Shown piece by piece: positions 3,743 through 61,592 of a DNA stretch of 64,000 nucleotides. Every line of letters starts with the position of its first letter. Position 1 is the first letter of the stretch. Both the position numbers and the translations under genes were made by a program. Under the pieces are notes generated by a model. That model saw only the letters and a list, made by a program, of their open reading frames with translations, was not told where the DNA came from and made no database searches. The DNA comes from a virus (lineage: Duplodnaviria; Caudoviricetes), in the IMG/VR virus record IMGVR_UViG_3300028920_000023; one strand, written 5' to 3'.

Positions 3743-4372
3743 CTAAGAAATCCCCTGAAAAATCCTAAAAACATTCTCAGCAACCACACCAGGATCATCA
3801 TTAGCATCCACAGAATGTAGACTCTCTAAGAATCTAGACATATTAGAAAAACAACCGCTAGTATCCCCAGAAGCGAGCCTATTATACAAATCCAAAACAT
3901 TCCTCTGATACTCTACATCATTCTCTTCAAAATAATCACGAACATTATTAGAACCTCTTCTCTTTAAGGCCGTAATCAAATCAGTACACAAAACGACAAG
4001 ATGAAACTTGGAATTAGACAAATTCTGCATATTCCATAACGTCTCACGATCACAACCACCACAAACACCATAAATCAATCCAGAAACAATATTACACCTA
4101 TCACTAATACTCCAAACACCCTCCGAGATATTAACATTCAACTCAGAATGAACAAACTCATTATAATCAGCAGCCATCAGAATCTGTCTAGTAAAACCAT
4201 TCGCTTTTATGCTAGGGTCCTTAACTATCTCTCTAACTTTCATGCCCAACGAAGTCGCACCTGGATGAATATAATATCTAGCCGGTATCCCCTGCTTTTT
4301 AAGCAACGACATAAGATTAGAACAGACTGTAGTCTTACCGGAACCATCCGGGCCTTCGATAACTAGATGCAT
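3743..4372 (-). CDS. tmk: Thymidylate kinase
   Basis: IEGPDGSGKTT P-loop, SDR motif, size 209 aa. Confidence 0.85.
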   Translation of the reverse strand: MHLVIEGPDGSGKTTVCSNLMSLLKKQGIPARYYIHPGATSLGMKVREIVKDPSIKANGFTRQILMAADYNEFVHSELNVNISEGVWSISDRCNIVSGLIYGVCGGCDRETLWNMQNLSNSKFHLVVLCTDLITALKRRGSNNVRDYFEENDVEYQRNVLDLYNRLASGDTSGCFSNMSRFLESLHSVDANDDPGVVAENVFRIFQGIS

Positions 4373-37414: not shown

Positions 37415-38458
37415 TTATCCAACAGGTAGACCATCCAGGAACCCTTCTTGTTTACCATTTAAATCAAGAACACCACCCTTAACAATATCAGTGAACTGCT
37501 CTTCAAACACAAAATACAACCTAATCATCGAAGAAGGCTCTTCCTTCCAATTAGACAGGTCCTGATCATCTTCTTTGAGTTCCTGCCTAATTTTAGCACC
37601 AGCACCAACCGCAACATAAACAGACCTCTTTAACGACCTCTCGTGTGTACGATGTGCATAGACCCATGCCTTAGACATTTCTGCGTCCTCTGAGTCATAA
37701 GAGAGAGGAACAGCACCATAAGGGCTTGTCTTCTCTTGTATGGGGGTATTAGCACTCATGGAACTAGGAGAAGATGTAGAGGGAATCGCTGAATTATATG
37801 GAATCGAACCCCCAAAAGAAGCAACCGTAGACCTCAGAAAATAATGAGGAGGAACAACCTTTTCCTTAGTTTTATAGAAAACAAAACCAAAAGCAGGAAC
37901 AGTATTCTCCTCGCCAATCACCAAAGAAGCAATATCCCTGGACTCATCTTCACTAAAGAAAAACTGCCTCACAGAACCATCAGGCTGTCTAAAACCATCC
38001 CACCATAACGTATTCGGAGAACACACATAATTCTGAGGAGGCCACTTATACTCACACTCCGGACAAAAACGATCACCTTTGAAATCACAACCATGTTTAG
38101 GACACTTCTCATCATACTTATGCAACCCTATACCATCAATCTTCAAACCAGTAATAGGATTCATCCCCTTAACACTAGCCATAATAGCAGTGTTATAACT
38201 ATCGTTCATTGTCCAATCGAACCACAAAGCCCAATTCGGCCTAACTGGACACACGAAACTTCCAGGCTCGCGAACCCAAGACTCGGGAGCCCCAGGTAAT
38301 GAGTCCAGAGGAAAAACAGAAATCGTTTGGCCAGCAGGCAAACCATGTACGTGACCGTTATCCTCTAGCTTCTCAGCACGACGCAGGACAGCCTCGAATC
38401 CCTTATGAGACATGACCTTAACACTGGCTCCGCGAATAACATCTGACATAGAATCCAT
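37415..38458 (-). CDS. Conserved uncharacterised protein with Zn-finger insert
   Basis: 347 aa; ALWFDW, KGMNPITG, QNYVCSPNTLWWDGFRQPDGSVRQFF, VGAGAKIRQEL; CPKH...CPEC. Confidence 0.7.
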   Translation of the reverse strand: MDSMSDVIRGASVKVMSHKGFEAVLRRAEKLEDNGHVHGLPAGQTISVFPLDSLPGAPESWVREPGSFVCPVRPNWALWFDWTMNDSYNTAIMASVKGMNPITGLKIDGIGLHKYDEKCPKHGCDFKGDRFCPECEYKWPPQNYVCSPNTLWWDGFRQPDGSVRQFFFSEDESRDIASLVIGEENTVPAFGFVFYKTKEKVVPPHYFLRSTVASFGGSIPYNSAIPSTSSPSSMSANTPIQEKTSPYGAVPLSYDSEDAEMSKAWVYAHRTHERSLKRSVYVAVGAGAKIRQELKEDDQDLSNWKEEPSSMIRLYFVFEEQFTDIVKGGVLDLNGKQEGFLDGLPVG

Positions 38459-38487
38459 GACGAAATCTCCAATTCTAGAGTTGAAAA

Positions 38488-39375
38488 TTAGTAGCGCTTA
38501 TGTTGATTCAGCGGATCAAGTTTACCATTACGAGAAACAGATATACGCTTTCTCAACTTAGGCAACGTACCATCTTCCTGCATCTCGGAATAAATGCGAC
38601 TGAACGATGGCACTTTCTTCAACTCATCAATACCATGTTGACGCAACCTAACAATCAGAGTAGCAATATCCATAAGATTACCAGTAGAGACCATACCTCT
38701 TACCAGGGCTACATTGGCCGCAACCCTAACCTCATCAGAGATACCTTCCCAAGTATTATGACACTTATCACAATACCCATTAGTCAAGATCGTACCGGCA
38801 TGGAACGGACATTCCTCTACGTACGTCATAGGGAACTGATTCACTGTATAAACACGAACCTCTTCCCCATCAACAATACATACCGGGCTGGTCTCCCGAC
38901 GACGGGCAATACGCAAATGCTCCAACGTACGCTCAAGATCAATAGTCTCGTTATCTGATTTATAGATGACGAAAGGACGGCCATTAGAACGCTTCAATAA
39001 CTCATCTATGATCTCGGAACTTGATTCAGGACCGTATTTCTCTAATAATTCCTTATCACTCATCCTCCCTACAGGCTTAAGAGCTTCTAATAACGAGGAA
39101 TTATCTTCGAGAATAATATTCTCTTTCTTGACTCGCCCCTTAAGAACCTGCCAACCAGCCGAAAATCTAGCTGGTTTTACCTTAGTGCTCTTAAAAGCCT
39201 CCTTGGCGTCTGCTTCTCTTGTCGTATCTGCTTCTAGAAGAGAAATCGCATCCTCATCTTCCTTGTCTACACCAAGCTCAGACAAAGCTTGATATACAGC
39301 CTCTTCTGTGATTTTCATCACTTCAGCTGCTTTGCTTACTCTACATTCTAGGGGAGATACAGGAGGATTAGCCAT
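38488..39375 (-). CDS. Hypothetical protein with Zn-binding motif
   Basis: 295 aa, AAGGAG RBS; CPFH...YCDKC. Confidence 0.7.
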   Translation of the reverse strand: MANPPVSPLECRVSKAAEVMKITEEAVYQALSELGVDKEDEDAISLLEADTTREADAKEAFKSTKVKPARFSAGWQVLKGRVKKENIILEDNSSLLEALKPVGRMSDKELLEKYGPESSSEIIDELLKRSNGRPFVIYKSDNETIDLERTLEHLRIARRRETSPVCIVDGEEVRVYTVNQFPMTYVEECPFHAGTILTNGYCDKCHNTWEGISDEVRVAANVALVRGMVSTGNLMDIATLIVRLRQHGIDELKKVPSFSRIYSEMQEDGTLPKLRKRISVSRNGKLDPLNQHKRY

Positions 39376-39488
39376 GGTTATGGCTCCTTATTCTGTGCAC
39401 CTTGATTTTCGGTGCTGTGTTGTCAGGTTACTTGGGCCACACTCGTGGTACCGTTCGCCAGACTTCATTCTTATTTACTTTTGAGGAA

Positions 39489-39614
39489 GGGGATTAGCGC
39501 ATGGACGTGTTGTTTATTCACAATTTGCGATTGTGCGCTCCACCATGGAGCATTTTACGCTTACGCGTAAACTAGGAATCGAACCTAGCAGACTGTAACG
39601 TCGTGCAGTTCCCC
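39489..39614 (-). ncRNA. Y-RNA (YrlA)-like RNA with circularly permuted tRNA module
   Basis: Closing stem GGGGA-ACU-GCA-C-GACGU / ACGUC-CA-UGC-GCUAA-UCCCC encloses T arm CUAGG-UUCGAUU-CCUAG, loop-closed 7-bp acceptor UUUACGC-GUAA-GCGUAAA, D arm GCUC-CAUGGUG-GAGC, and 5-bp/7-nt arm CACAA-UCGCAAA-UUGUG. Confidence 0.85.
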
Positions 39615-39619
39615 AATCC

Positions 39620-40651
39620 TCAAATAGCAAACTTACTAGCACGGTTCCAAGGAGCATCTTTAGCCCATTTAGCTTTCGTAAACATCGAAGCATAAACAAT
39701 AGACCTAGATTTCCTCAAAACCTGACCATTAAACTGATCATTCTCCAAAGACACAATATCATAACCATTCATTGTGTCCTCAACCTTATCGGAAAACGGG
39801 TCATCTAGCAGTTCCCGGACGATTTCACGAACACGCTTATCCTCTTCTGCCTCTGCCCGTTCAATCTCACGCTCAAGATCTTCCAATGATCCGAGACCGC
39901 GAGATTTCAGAGGAACACGCAAACGAGAAGTCGGGGTACGGCTATTCTTACGAGCAACCTCGATAGACAATGACCCATAACACTCACGAACTAAAGGCCT
40001 CCAAAGCTCTGACCAATATCTAGGATTAGGAGCACGCTCCACGCCAGTAACAGAACCATTGATCAGAATAATCGCCCCAATCTGTTTAGGAACTATCTCA
40101 AACTCCGCAACAAACTGATCCAACTCATCCCTAAATGCACTAAGAAAATTATCCAAATTACCAGTCGCACTAACCTCAAAAGAAGCATTAAAACGAGAAA
40201 TATCATCCCAAAGCTTATAATAAGAACGCTCACCCCGCTTGTTAAACGCAGACTCACGCAAAGAAAAAGGAAGAACCAACATATCATGCTGGCCCTCGGG
40301 GATATAGCCACCTTGCGATTGCTGTATACACATCGCATCATCAAAAGACTTATCGCCCTTACCAACCAAACCAGCCCTGCTCATAGCATGATCCTGGGCA
40401 GCATGTTTCGTAACATACCCAGCATGACACGGAATAAGCAGGACCTTCTCCGGATCAGGATTACGAAACTTCATCTCACCATAATTGTGAGTACTTAAGC
40501 TCGTCTCAACGTCCTTATCCTGAGGAGAAATAATATTCAGATCATACAACTCCTTATCTTTACAAATAAGAGGAATAATCTGCATAACACCAACAGACTG
40601 CAGATTGCCAACCTTCGTACCACGCAGAACCTCACTGATAGTATAATCCAT
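39620..40651 (-). CDS. ARPP / DUF6569-like protein
   Basis: Start 40651 (GGAGG RBS, 1 nt after upstream TAG); NLQSVGVMQIIPL, AQDHAM, CIQQSQGG, EFEIVPKQIGAIILING...VERAP...W...CYG recognised from memory of the ARPP family. Confidence 0.6.
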   Translation of the reverse strand: MDYTISEVLRGTKVGNLQSVGVMQIIPLICKDKELYDLNIISPQDKDVETSLSTHNYGEMKFRNPDPEKVLLIPCHAGYVTKHAAQDHAMSRAGLVGKGDKSFDDAMCIQQSQGGYIPEGQHDMLVLPFSLRESAFNKRGERSYYKLWDDISRFNASFEVSATGNLDNFLSAFRDELDQFVAEFEIVPKQIGAIILINGSVTGVERAPNPRYWSELWRPLVRECYGSLSIEVARKNSRTPTSRLRVPLKSRGLGSLEDLEREIERAEAEEDKRVREIVRELLDDPFSDKVEDTMNGYDIVSLENDQFNGQVLRKSRSIVYASMFTKAKWAKDAPWNRASKFAI

Positions 40652-40652
40652 G

Positions 40653-42197
40653 CTAGATATCCTCCAACTGAGGCAAAGCGATCCTCGCCAGACCCTCGAT
40701 AGCCTCTTCCAAATTCGTAACAAGAAGAGACTTCAAAACCCGCATGCCAATCCCCTCAGGTTTAGACAACGGAACAGCCTCAACCTCCGGAGCCAAAGTC
40801 CTGAGCGCACCAGCCTTCTCCGCAGCCACCACAGGGGAGACCTGAACCACCGGAGTATTAATCCCCATCTCACGAACAATCTTCAGAACTTCAGAAAATC
40901 TACCCGCAGGAGCATTCTCGTAACCATCAGACAACACATAAACAATCTCAGGATCATACTTCAAAAGAGACACCAAAGCAGACGCCAAAGAGGTCGGACC
41001 ACAGGGAAAAACCAAACCGCCCCTAGGGGCACCACCACAATGGACCACATCAGCAGAAGAACTAGCCTCTTTTAACATATCCCTTACAGCCAAAGAAACA
41101 GCAATCGGACGATTCTTCTGAGTATCATCACCCATCATGGACCTAGAACAATCCACAATAATACCTATGTGACCATGTTTGGAGAACATCGCCTCAGCAG
41201 ATTTCTTTGCTTTCTGCTTTAATGCTGCACGGATCTCGTCTGTCATCCCCATCTCATAAGCGTAGATATAAAGCCTTACGGCATCCAGAGAATGAGGATT
41301 AAACTCGACTTTCACACCAACTTTCTTTGTAGCCTTCTGGACAAGGGCCTTCTGTCGTTTGGTCATCCCACTCTTTGCTAACTCATAAACCACATCCTTG
41401 CCGACGCTAGTATGGAACCTACTTCTTAAGTAAAAGAGTTGCTCTTTGGGCAATCCTTTCCCTTCGGCAAGGTTCTTCTTGGCTTTGATATACTTCTTCA
41501 TAGGATCGGATTTGATCCTGTTCTCAAATCCGAGTATGAAGGCCAGAGGCTCCGTGACGTCGGCGTCTGTATATGGCTCTACGTATTTGGACAGGGTTGT
41601 TTTTTGTTTTTCTGTCCATGCTTTCTTGACGCCTTTTCCGTGTTTCGCTTCCAGGCATTTATACACGGATTTAAAGACGTTCTGGCCCCAGGCATGTTGT
41701 AGGCATTGTCTTATTTTGTAGCGGTATTTGACGCTCCAGTGTTTGAGATTTTTGTTACCTAATAGGCAATTTAGAATGAGTTTCCTAGTTCTAGAATTGT
41801 TGATTCTGTTTTTTCTGAATTCCAGGAACGCTTTGATCATTCTCTGCGGTTCTACGGAACCTGCGAGATGTCTTATTAGTTTGCCTTCTTGCGCCGGAGT
41901 TAGGATTGCTTCCCCACTTCTTGGATTATCAAGGAAGAAACCCATTCCGAGCTGTTTCGAGTAGTCGTTTATCCCAGGCAAGCAGAGACACAGACCGTAA
42001 ATCCCACGGTCGATTGAGAAGATGTCTTTGTGCAGTTGTAATATTGCTTGTTTTTGTTCTTCTCTTGTATTGTAATGTGTTGCTCTGTCCGTTGCTGCAG
42101 CTACGGTATCAAGGAAACTACCCAGGAGCCCTGGCAGTTTTCGTTTCTGCGCTGTACTTAGATGGTCTATTTTGGATATCGCTAGTTCTGTGGTCAT
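40653..42197 (-). CDS. Ro60/TROVE-like protein: ~370-aa helical domain plus C-terminal vWA domain
   Basis: Start 42197 (MTTELAIS); vWA MIDAS IIVDCSRSM ... GPTSLA ... VLSDGYEN; basic helical N-domain. vWA is well supported; TROVE homology is inferred from architecture and flanking RNAs. Confidence 0.6.
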   Translation of the reverse strand: MTTELAISKIDHLSTAQKRKLPGLLGSFLDTVAAATDRATHYNTREEQKQAILQLHKDIFSIDRGIYGLCLCLPGINDYSKQLGMGFFLDNPRSGEAILTPAQEGKLIRHLAGSVEPQRMIKAFLEFRKNRINNSRTRKLILNCLLGNKNLKHWSVKYRYKIRQCLQHAWGQNVFKSVYKCLEAKHGKGVKKAWTEKQKTTLSKYVEPYTDADVTEPLAFILGFENRIKSDPMKKYIKAKKNLAEGKGLPKEQLFYLRSRFHTSVGKDVVYELAKSGMTKRQKALVQKATKKVGVKVEFNPHSLDAVRLYIYAYEMGMTDEIRAALKQKAKKSAEAMFSKHGHIGIIVDCSRSMMGDDTQKNRPIAVSLAVRDMLKEASSSADVVHCGGAPRGGLVFPCGPTSLASALVSLLKYDPEIVYVLSDGYENAPAGRFSEVLKIVREMGINTPVVQVSPVVAAEKAGALRTLAPEVEAVPLSKPEGIGMRVLKSLLVTNLEEAIEGLARIALPQLEDI

Positions 42198-42254
42198 GAT
42201 CTCGCCCTTTCCAGTGATGAGGCTGTTTATCAGCTTCGTCCTGGTAGTTAAAGT

Positions 42255-42283
42255 AGATGCGGACCTGATTGGGGTCCGCATCT
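42255..42283. other. 11-bp hairpin between RNA pair and vWA gene
   Basis: AGATGCGGACC-tgattgg-GGTCCGCATCT. Confidence 0.7.
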
Positions 42284-42291
42284 GATTTAGT

Positions 42292-42404
42292 GGGGGATTT
42301 GCGCAGGGTCAGTTTTCGTCAGAGAGGGAATTGAACCCTCAACTTCGCTTTATAAGAGCGATGTCCTATCCATTGGACTATCTGTAATGACGTGCAGTTC
42401 CCCC
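42292..42404 (-). ncRNA. Y-like RNA containing tRNA-Ile(UAU) body with broken acceptor stem
   Basis: Closing stem GGGGGA-ACU-GCA-C-GUCA / UGAC-CC-UGC-GCAAA-UCCCCC; D arm GUCC/GGAC, anticodon arm UCGCU-CUUAUAA-AGCGA, T arm GAGGG-UUCAAUU-CCCUC; only 4 acceptor bp, no CCA. Confidence 0.85.
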
Positions 42405-42431
42405 GAACTTGCTTTTTTGTTTTGGGATTAG

Positions 42432-42547
42432 TTTGGGGTTGGCGCAAAGTCGTGTTTAAGTGGAGCAGGACTTGAACCTGCGACTTATCGGTTATCAGCC
42501 GATCGCTCTACCATTGAGCTATCCTGTAACGACGTGCAGTCCCCAAA
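42432..42547 (-). ncRNA. Y-like RNA containing tRNA-Ile(GAU) body with broken acceptor stem
   Basis: Closing stem UUUGGGG-ACU-GCA-C-GUCGU / ACGAC-UU-UGC-GCCAA-CCCCAAA; D arm GCUC/GAGC, anticodon arm AUCGG-CUGAUAA-CCGAU, T arm GCAGG-UUCAAGU-CCUGC; only 3 contiguous acceptor bp, no CCA. Confidence 0.85.
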
Positions 42548-42579
42548 GATCATTTTTCGGTCAGTGCCAAACCAGAAAC

Positions 42580-42608
42580 ATTGTATCACATCCAAACCGC
42601 TTTGTCAA
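42580..42608 (-). promoter_or_regulatory. Sigma70 promoter TTGACA-17-TACAAT with extended -10 TG
   Basis: Direct match; predicted TSS about 42573, roughly 26-30 nt before the first RNA; the -35 box contains the upstream gene's TGA stop. Confidence 0.8.
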
Positions 42609-42997
42609 GTACCCACTGCCATCTTCTTTGTCGTCTTCTTCTTATAAGAACGACGACCCCGTTTCTGCATCTCCTCGCTCTCATATAGAGAACGGGCCAT
42701 ATTTAAAAATTGTCTAGTAACCATCCTAAGAACATTCTCGAACTCTCTAGAATTCAAAGCACAATTATGATAACAAGTATAGGTAACTATCTTCACAACA
42801 ACTGTACCAGGCATAGAAGAATCATTCACAATACCACTAGCTATAATCTCAGCATGAGTCTTATCATAAGTCTCACCACCAAAATAAGGATAATCAAAAA
42901 ACACACCGTCCTCATCCGTATCCCTAATCAACCCATAGAAAATCGCAAACTTCTTCATTTCCGATGGTCTAGACAAGAAATTCAAAGGTGCTTCCAT
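42605..42997 (-). CDS. Hypothetical protein
   Basis: Start set at 42997 (GGGAG RBS just after dut stop); basic C-terminus. Confidence 0.6.
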   Translation of the reverse strand: MEAPLNFLSRPSEMKKFAIFYGLIRDTDEDGVFFDYPYFGGETYDKTHAEIIASGIVNDSSMPGTVVVKIVTYTCYHNCALNSREFENVLRMVTRQFLNMARSLYESEEMQKRGRRSYKKKTTKKMAVGT

Positions 42998-61401: not shown

Positions 61402-61477
61402 TGGTGGTCCCGGCAGGATTCGAACCTGCGACCAGCTGATTATGAGTCAGCGGCTCTCACCTCTGAGCTACGGGACC
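61402..61477 (-). tRNA. tRNA-CAU (Ile2- or elongator Met-type), CCA encoded
   Basis: GGUCCCG/CGGGACC acceptor, GCUC/GAGC D arm, GCUGA-CUCAUAA-UCAGC, GCAGG-UUCGAAU-CCUGC, ACCA. Confidence 0.92.
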
Positions 61478-61516
61478 TATTCGTAACCCTTTTATCTGTT
61501 CTAAATTTAGGATAAA

Positions 61517-61592
61517 TGGTTGCGGGCCGTGGTAACGCTCCACGATTAGCGGGTTATGAGCCCGCCCAGGAGACTTCTCCTAGCCACCCGCA
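61517..61592 (-). tRNA. Atypical initiator-like tRNA-CAU
   Basis: UGCGGG.../CCCGCA-ACCA and GGG/CCC anticodon stem as in tRNA-fMet, but a 7-bp D stem with 4-nt loop and T loop AGCGUUA. Confidence 0.7.

Follow-up and report, generated by a model that had tools for sequence, protein, structure and literature searches.

Introduction

Ro60 and the Y RNAs are conserved from bacteria to humans, and their functions in bacteria are poorly understood. Here we describe a module of two genes and three structured RNAs that resembles them, found in the DNA of a virus (Duplodnaviria; Caudoviricetes; IMG/VR record IMGVR_UViG_3300028920_000023), a stretch of 64,000 nucleotides (nt) that as a whole we call the window. 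The literature on Ro60 and Y RNAs reaches to Ro60 proteins of phages (PMC4201824, PMC12135203, PMC7824862). In Salmonella, Mycobacterium smegmatis and mycobacteriophages, Ro60 (Rsr) is a protein of ~520 amino acids (aa) made of a ring plus a vWA domain; several small RNAs, YrlA and YrlB, adjoin its gene on the same strand, and a terminal stem is common to those with and those without a tRNA-like module (PMC4201824). All of these traits have a counterpart in the window. A phage-encoded version is also known in Thermus phage phiLo, whose Ro60 comes with Yrl1 and Yrl2, and in the Rsr-Yrn1-PNPase assembly of Deinococcus radiodurans (RYPER) the Y RNA tethers the ring protein to an effector enzyme, while the specific role of the MIDAS (metal ion-dependent adhesion site) of Ro60 is described as unclear (PMC12135203).

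Two other bodies of work bear on the locus. The ARPP family was defined by Iyer et al. in 2022 and proposed to be an enzyme acting on ribose moieties; the available part of that paper describes ARG-centered conflict systems in which ARPP-1 and ARPP-2 proteins have a conserved Cys and Gln and vWA proteins are recurrent, much as in the module described here (PMC9503650). The neighborhoods of tRNA gene arrays are enriched in RNA-processing genes such as rtcB, according to the accessible text of two studies (PMC8421152, PMC4758250). Full-text literature searches returned no paper linking ARPP, a Ro60-like ring and structured RNAs. We find the module in about 100 loci of phages and bacteria, frequently adjoining tRNA gene arrays, and we consider it probably a phage-borne copy of a widespread, undescribed branch of Ro60/Y-RNA-type ribonucleoproteins.

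Results

The elements of the module are listed below. We call the closing stem shared by the three RNAs the handle and the part that it encloses the cargo.

42580..42608, minus strand: sigma-70-type promoter, TTGACA-17-TACAAT with an extended -10 TG, placed to drive RNA-A and RNA-B
42432..42547, minus strand: RNA-A, a handle of helices P1-P2-P3 around an unpermuted tRNA-like cargo
42292..42404, minus strand: RNA-B, a handle identical in build to that of RNA-A, around a tRNA-like cargo
42256..42282, minus strand: 10-bp GC-rich hairpin between RNA-B and the 514-aa gene, read from the sequence
40653..42197, minus strand: Ro60-like gene, 514 aa, with a predicted helical ring and a C-terminal vWA domain with a MIDAS
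39620..40651, minus strand: ARPP-family gene, 343 aa
39489..39614, minus strand: RNA-C, a handle around a circularly permuted tRNA-like cargo

An earlier note on this DNA had proposed the order promoter, RNA-A, RNA-B, vWA gene, ARPP gene and RNA-C, and we recovered all six elements in that order, on that strand and at the positions it gave. Its sigma70 promoter has 11 of 12 matches and is the top promoter-like site within 37.3-42.8 kb; a TTGACA promoter of similar type also lies 5' of the RNA arrays in two other phage-type loci, L001 and L070. The hairpin at 42256..42282 is a possible partial terminator or processing site. A terminator scan did not call it, there being no U-run, and L001 has a hairpin with a T-run at the equivalent position. 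The Ro60-like open reading frame has a possible alternative start at 42281; the database copy is the 514-aa form. The ARPP ATG lies only 1 nt past the stop codon of the Ro60-like gene, and RNA-C starts 5 nt past the ARPP stop.

The three RNAs are alike in their handles. A 17-nt core, ACTGCACGNNNTTACAG, occurs exactly three times in the 64 kb, once in each RNA, and RNAfold gives all three a common closing stem made of P1 (5-7 bp), an ACU loop, P2, a bulged C and P3 (5 bp), with z-scores of -2.3, -2.9 and -4.0, the last for RNA-C. The inner helix shows the compensation previously read from it (GUCG/CGAC, GUCA/UGAC, GACG/CGUC), and these compensated positions are the only ones at which the 5' strand of the RNA-C handle departs from those of RNA-A and RNA-B. 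The 3' strands have the form YGWC-NN-UGCGCNAA-(U)CCCC, also as described. The suggestion that the unpaired residues are nearly invariant survived in part: the 5' ACU after P1, the bulged C and the UWC-AG after P3 are conserved across the whole family introduced below, but GCNAA is confined to the window, the 3' loop of the wider family being A(A/C)CYU-like.

Each stem had been thought to enclose a tRNA-shaped domain, and this proved right, with RNA-A and RNA-B tRNA-shaped and RNA-C a permuted, tRNA-Cys-like fold. The RNA-A cargo scores 61.6 bits with the Rfam tRNA model, with marked acceptor mismatches and the anticodon loop CUGAUAA (GAU). The RNA-B cargo scores 56.8 bits over model positions 4-67 only, has the anticodon loop CUUAUAA (UAU) and is named tRNA-Ile(TAT) by ARAGORN at 42387-42316. 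Both have the D, anticodon and T arms of a canonical tRNA. Only four of seven acceptor pairs (RNA-A) and five of seven (RNA-B) form, however, CCA is absent and the ends run into P3. The two cargos are thus tRNA-Ile-like bodies with crippled acceptor stems.

In RNA-C a T arm is followed by a 7-bp acceptor hairpin with a GUAA cap, then by a D arm and an anticodon-like arm (GCA). ARAGORN makes no tRNA call on it in its native order, but once it is cut in the GUAA loop and joined up across the handle through five bases of its own, the program calls tRNA-Cys(GCA). Since the call appears only after cutting and rejoining, RNA-C is a circularly permuted tRNA-like fold. An nhmmer search with RNA-C found no relative among about 115 loci. 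As a separate observation, a tRNA-Cys(GCA) gene lies ~22 nt 5' of the handle RNA in most Pirellulaceae loci (e.g., L009:3523-3594); this neighbor and the Cys(GCA)-like cargo of RNA-C may be a coincidence.

The 514-aa protein had been proposed to be a divergent Ro60, and the predicted structure bears this out. An AlphaFold2 model made from 30 homologues (predicted local distance difference test [pLDDT], 89.9; predicted template modeling score, 0.84) retrieved only Ro60/TROVE entries among its top 13 Foldseek matches in the PDB. In VIA comparisons, Ro60 structures matched with Z of 12.4-18.3 over 388-406 residues, spanning residues 20-512 and hence both ring and vWA domain: Xenopus Ro60 gave Z 18.3 (405 residues; root-mean-square deviation, 4.3), that of Thermus phage phiLo Z 15.9 and D. 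radiodurans Rsr Z 12.8, and vWA-only chains reached Z 11.8 at most. The modeled fold is therefore of the Ro60 type: a single chain of ~500-540 aa in which a HEAT-like ring of helices precedes a vWA domain. The MIDAS residues (DxSxS...T...D) D349, S351 (nearly invariant), S353, T402 and D424 are conserved across the 30 homologues, and the helical part is rich in invariant basic and aromatic residues, e.g., N133-N134-x-R136-T137.

The family escapes recognition by sequence. Neither Pfam TROVE (PF05731) nor the Ro60-type vWA (PF25045) matched the protein, which gave a weak match to VWA_2 at an E value of 0.065, compared with 148-173 bits for the true TROVE proteins of two genomes used for comparison (G003 and G004). 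A PHROGs search returned nothing, and the family profile searched against PDB sequences gave no Ro60, only spurious coiled-coil matches. Clustering at 50% identity leaves 733 representatives at E<=1e-3 and 400 at E<=1e-30; their database names are "VWA domain-containing" or hypothetical, and most are from Planctomycetota. Cultivable bacteria with a homologue include Rhodopirellula baltica SH28, Roseiconus nitratireducens and Stieleria magnilauensis. The Ro60-like family is, in short, invisible to sequence-based annotation.

The partner gene belongs to the ARPP family, with Pfam scores of 115.5 bits for ARPP-1 (3.8e-33; cut-off 27) and 34.5 bits for ARPP-2 (PF20208 and PF22549). Q86, H88, C108, E185, E205, R222 and Y225 are invariant; C108, Q86, Q110 and Q113 are invariant or nearly so, so that the protein has the Cys and Gln typical of the family. 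In tblastn searches ARPP lies directly 3' of the Ro60-like gene wherever the contig continues, that is, in 58 genome loci, 28 viral loci and L001, and in each of the nine loci that lack it, the contig breaks off at the end of the Ro60-like gene or no more than ~260 nt from it. An apparent natural fusion of 884 aa (P0207) unites Ro60-like residues 14-519 with an ARPP domain at 562-831.

ARPP itself was modeled with a pLDDT of 91.7. A predicted complex of the two proteins scored 0.67, against 0.00 for the best of three controls, with at least 95% of contacts in agreement between runs and a partner pLDDT of at least 85. The predicted interface brings the MIDAS segments 351-353, 399-403 and 426-431 against ARPP residues 16-21 and 182-188, the latter including the invariant E185. 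ARPP is thus predicted, from these models, to dock on the MIDAS face of the vWA domain.

To look for the handle elsewhere, we used two covariance models, R1, built from eight Pirellulaceae RNAs with a hand-drawn structure, and R2, built from 58 hits. Handle RNAs were found on the same strand beside the gene pair in phages and bacteria, the co-occurrence for which the earlier note had proposed a test. Ordinary tRNAs reach at most 42 bits and only over model positions 26-96; because "full-length" matches below ~45 bits occur at plain tRNAs, we counted only those of at least 50 bits. Such full-length R1 or R2 matches are present in 40 of 67 genome loci and 22 of 28 IMG/VR viral loci, and most of the remaining loci have weaker full-length matches, eight having no upstream sequence at all. 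RNA-A scores 67.7 bits with R1 and 86.8 bits with R2, both over the full length, and RNA-B scores 57.6 and 79 bits. All matches but one lie on the gene's strand, mostly within 0.5 kb upstream and some just past ARPP. The closest relatives repeat the layout of the window module; L001 has a promoter, three handle RNAs with tRNA-like cargos, then both genes.

In the model-fitted alignment of 58 RNAs, 94.5% of cells form standard pairs, compared with 26-43% when partners are slid, and none of 500 shuffles reaches the pairing values seen. Changes on both sides were found for every P1 pair (nine), every P2 pair (three) and four of the five P3 pairs. Within the handle, G-U exceeds A-C (48 against 15), consistent with pairing in the sense orientation. 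The "tRNA" immediately 5' of the gene in Rhodopirellula bears a handle with a different, still complementary P1.

In four whole genomes the best R2 match adjoins the pair (128.8, 128.1, 110.2 and 76.7 bits), with at most 67.6 bits elsewhere, and of the five exact matches to the 5' motif ACTNGCNCGTCANTNCAG in 49 Mb, four fall in gene-pair loci. Two other searches were discarded: a 15-base window-type motif gave 17 chance-like hits over IMG/VR, without GGGG stem, tRNA-like body or gene pair, and a structure-only handle descriptor lacked specificity, with 391 sense hits against 325 antisense and 408 reversed ones. One genome (G003, that of locus L004) carries an 18-nt sequence, ACTAGCACGTAAGTGCAG, at eight dispersed sites (e.g., C1:1727801), one base off the handle motif; this repeat is probably unrelated to the handle.

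The RNAs had been suggested to form a family separate from the known Y RNAs, and the searches agree. An Rfam scan of 39300-42700 at E<=10 yielded tRNA-type matches only, with no Y_RNA or YrlA, and the YrlA model served as its own positive control, giving 30-46 bits right 5' of TROVE genes in genomes that also carry the Ro60-like module. Conversely, R1 found nothing but tRNAs beside those TROVE genes (<=27.6 bits). With YrlA beside TROVE and handle RNAs beside the Ro60-like gene, two RNA families therefore track two protein families. The earlier note also cast the module as a phage system; phage copies do exist, but most of the homologues found are chromosomal, in Planctomycetota and Myxococcota.

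One handle carries many cargos: unpermuted tRNA-like bodies, the permuted one of RNA-C, a two-hairpin domain of ~50 nt, a 23S-fragment-like domain, or none, which fits the proposal that the cargos are interchangeable cassettes. The 23S-like cargo is ~150 nt long and contains a 22-nt core with 95-100% identity to 23S rRNA genes around model position 1940-1960, a stretch that we take to be the H69-H71 region. The closest viral relative of the window module, L070, carries the smallest RNAs, with cargos of 20 nt or two hairpins, or with the handle closed by a CUAU tetraloop. These handle-only and tiny-cargo RNAs make the handle an autonomous unit.

L022:1578-1770: 23S-like cargo of ~150 nt in a handle
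L059:511-703: 23S-like cargo of ~150 nt in a handle
L063:3515-3692: 23S-like cargo of ~150 nt in a handle
L070:3676-3738, 3752-3843 and 3867-3905: the mini RNAs of L070 (20-nt cargo; two hairpins; handle closed by the CUAU tetraloop)

A 118-nt relative of the 23S-like cargo occurs without a handle at L115:1495-1620 and in L116, in one case ~0.5 kb 5' of a divergent TROVE paralogue (G003) and in the other in a second tRNA array (G001).

In a set of 13 Pirellulaceae RNAs that are nearly identical, one of the most variable parts is the anticodon triplet: CUU, UAG, AUG, AUU, AAG and UUU occur (loci L009, L008, L010, L012, L013 and L062), with the U33/R37 architecture kept. ARAGORN and genome annotation mislabel such handle RNAs as tRNAs with odd anticodons, e.g., His-ATG and Asn-ATT. 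In Planctomycetota and Myxococcota the bacterial module usually sits inside or beside arrays of 13-38 tRNA genes, which flank the pair on each side in Myxococcota and are found upstream of it in Pirellulaceae (see also L009, L044 and L041); in Minicystis rosea (L028, genome G004), 38 tRNA genes fall in 9.6 kb around the module. The phage-type copies in the window, L001 and L070 have no tRNA array. Minicystis rosea also has a canonical Ro60 gene ~4 kb 5' of the Ro60-like/ARPP pair (G004:8256807-8261803, L120/L028), in the same tRNA-array island, its product scoring 148 bits with TROVE and 217 bits with vWA_Ro60.

Discussion

Set against Ro60 and YrlA, the module of the window has neither the TROVE and vWA_Ro60 Pfam matches nor Rfam matches to YrlA (RF02553) or Y RNA (RF00019), and the GNCGAAN0-1G motif (or GGUCCGA) is absent from the 5' strands of its RNAs. 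The modular build of Y RNAs, a terminal stem plus a tRNA-like module, is seen in RNA-C, whose order is that of YrlA (T arm, closed acceptor hairpin, D arm; PMC4201824). RNA-A and RNA-B are unpermuted, and so are most handle cargos, with the anticodon arm intact and the acceptor stem joined to the handle. The obligate partner gene is ARPP rather than rtcB or rtcA. Unlike in RYPER, no link to PNPase is seen at the window module, and the candidate effector, ARPP, is encoded next door and predicted to sit on the MIDAS face directly, not via an RNA.

Compared with the ARPP conflict systems, the module lacks an ADP-ribosylglycohydrolase, rhodanese-phosphatase, HIRAN, WYL or deacetylase partner, and the three two-gene ARPP contexts in the accessible part of PMC9503650 include no ring protein of the Ro60 kind, no structured RNAs and no tRNA arrays. 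The genes linked to tRNA arrays in the available text of the tRNA-array studies are HNH endonuclease, rtcB and dpsA, not the Ro60-like/ARPP pair, and handle RNAs, unlike the members of those arrays, are not canonical tRNAs.

These comparisons suggest how the module could work. A protein of Ro60 architecture, its sequence diverged beyond recognition, would form a scaffold of ring and MIDAS-bearing vWA domain, and the handle would dock on it as the stem of a Y RNA does on Ro60. ARPP, enzyme-like with its invariant Cys/His/Gln cluster, would be made by translational coupling and sit on the MIDAS face. The cargo, a mimic of tRNA or rRNA with an exposed anticodon-type loop and no usable acceptor end, could then lead the complex of protein and ARPP to factors that recognize tRNA or rRNA, or serve them as a decoy. 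Such a module may act in surveillance, repair or protection of translation RNAs, and in a phage it might keep translation going against tRNA-directed host defenses.

A bolder possibility, which we consider speculative and unlikely, is that handle RNAs are programmable baits for RNA-targeting toxins or modifiers, with the ring holding the bait and ARPP reversing, processing or signaling the lesion. The candidate baits would mimic tRNA with a given anticodon or the 23S H69-H71 region, and their attackers could be, for example, anticodon nucleases or RNA ADP-ribosyltransferases. If true, this would amount to a new RNA-guided repair or counter-defense system and would provide a ligand for the enigmatic MIDAS of Ro60.

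The RNAs might instead be unusual precursors of working tRNAs, the stem serving in processing, stability or regulation, for example as a gate for RNase III or RNase P, without being bound by the neighboring proteins. The tRNA scores of the RNA-A and RNA-B cargos, one of them named by ARAGORN, the embedding of the bacterial module in arrays of up to 38 tRNA genes and the loop architecture kept across many triplets would all follow, and in M. smegmatis YrlA is cut by RNase P and gains CCA (PMC4201824). Family-wide, however, only three acceptor pairs are kept, without CCA, and the conserved UUACAG strand imposes mismatches at 3-70 and 4-69. The same handle also surrounds cargos that cannot be tRNAs, being permuted, two-hairpin, 23S-like or absent; in the window, L001 and L070 the RNAs and the gene pair occur with no tRNA array; and the tRNAs of the arrays are of the ordinary kind, without a handle. 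We therefore regard a precursor role as quite improbable.

In another arrangement, to which we give little credence, ARPP or a host factor, not the ring, binds the handle, and the vWA protein is a MIDAS-type adaptor or chaperone for ARPP. vWA proteins acting as peptide-binding co-chaperones have been linked to ARPP systems (Iyer et al. 2022, PMC9503650), the predicted interface is confined to the vWA domain and the TROVE signal is missing at the sequence level. Yet an adaptor of this kind leaves unaccounted for a helical domain of ~330 residues that is conserved like the vWA domain, rich in invariant Arg, Lys, His, Tyr and Asn, and superposable on the Ro60 ring, RNA-bound Ro60 entries included. 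The arrangement of gene and RNAs, on the same strand and within 4 kb, is moreover that of Ro60 and Y RNA (PMC4201824).

That the stems act in DNA, as recombination or cassette-boundary sites of a mobile tRNA-array element in the manner of folded attC, is highly improbable: stems with conserved unpaired bases around variable cassettes do recall integron attC, and tRNA arrays are thought to be mobile (PMC4758250, PMC8421152), but a consensus promoter lies directly upstream, the cargos retain RNA-level tRNA features (T loop, D loop), sense-strand G-U prevails over A-C by 3 to 1, all matches but one lie on the gene's strand and no conserved recombinase adjoins the module.

Several points weigh against a Ro60/Y-RNA-type ribonucleoprotein. 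The likeness of the 514-aa protein to Ro60 is confined to the level of the predicted fold; hhalign against five TROVE proteins aligned the vWA part alone, with a probability of 24.8%. Helical repeat proteins can, in addition, reach middling Z scores from their arrangement alone, an objection weakened by a Z of 18, by the coverage of both domains and by the fact that only Ro60 entries stand at the top. That the handle is the docking site of the Ro60-like protein is suggested by analogy with Y RNAs. About a fifth of the loci with an intact upstream flank have no clear handle RNA, and the fitting of the 58-RNA alignment to the model favors structure. ARPP has no relative by fold in Foldseek searches of the PDB or in VIA searches of 48,161 chains (Z<=5.1). 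The complex was predicted on purpose-made alignments, so that its calibration, in which a mark of 0.67 was attained by 58 of the 80 complexes of solved structure and by 2 of the 110 mismatched pairs, is only rough. Finally, a search for RNA sequencing runs of the region turned up only three DNA metagenome runs from marine sediment.

A module of this type would mean that the Ro60/Y-RNA design reaches further, and is more modular, than one would gather from the TROVE and YrlA models. Its dedicated, enzyme-like partner makes ARPP a concrete candidate for a MIDAS ligand, and the handle of ~40 nt, which occurs naturally free of cargo, offers a minimal RNA element for binding tests. The module also ties a Ro60-type particle to tRNA arrays, which have been discussed as backup or anti-defense sets of tRNAs.

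Genomic context of the module

The window appears to be viral, judging by the 28 homologous loci in IMG/VR contigs of 40-435 kb, its synteny with L070 and its phage-type genes, which include a dUTPase and sugar-pathway genes. When the region was compared by blastn with 50,697 GenBank phages, matches were confined to the tRNA-like cores, and no related annotated phage was found.

Two minus-strand genes within 37415-39375 lie 3' of RNA-C (38488-39375 and 37415-38458; 295 and 347 aa). Considered as parts of the system, they were rejected: they are conserved only in L070, with 45-47% identity to their counterparts there, and neither matched Pfam or PHROG. From their distribution they look like lineage-specific neighbors, not core parts.

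Elsewhere in the window, at 61402-61592 of the minus strand, ARAGORN reports a pair of neighboring tRNA-Met(CAT) genes. The second (61517-61592) is atypical, as the Rfam tRNA model at its gathering score reports the first one only.

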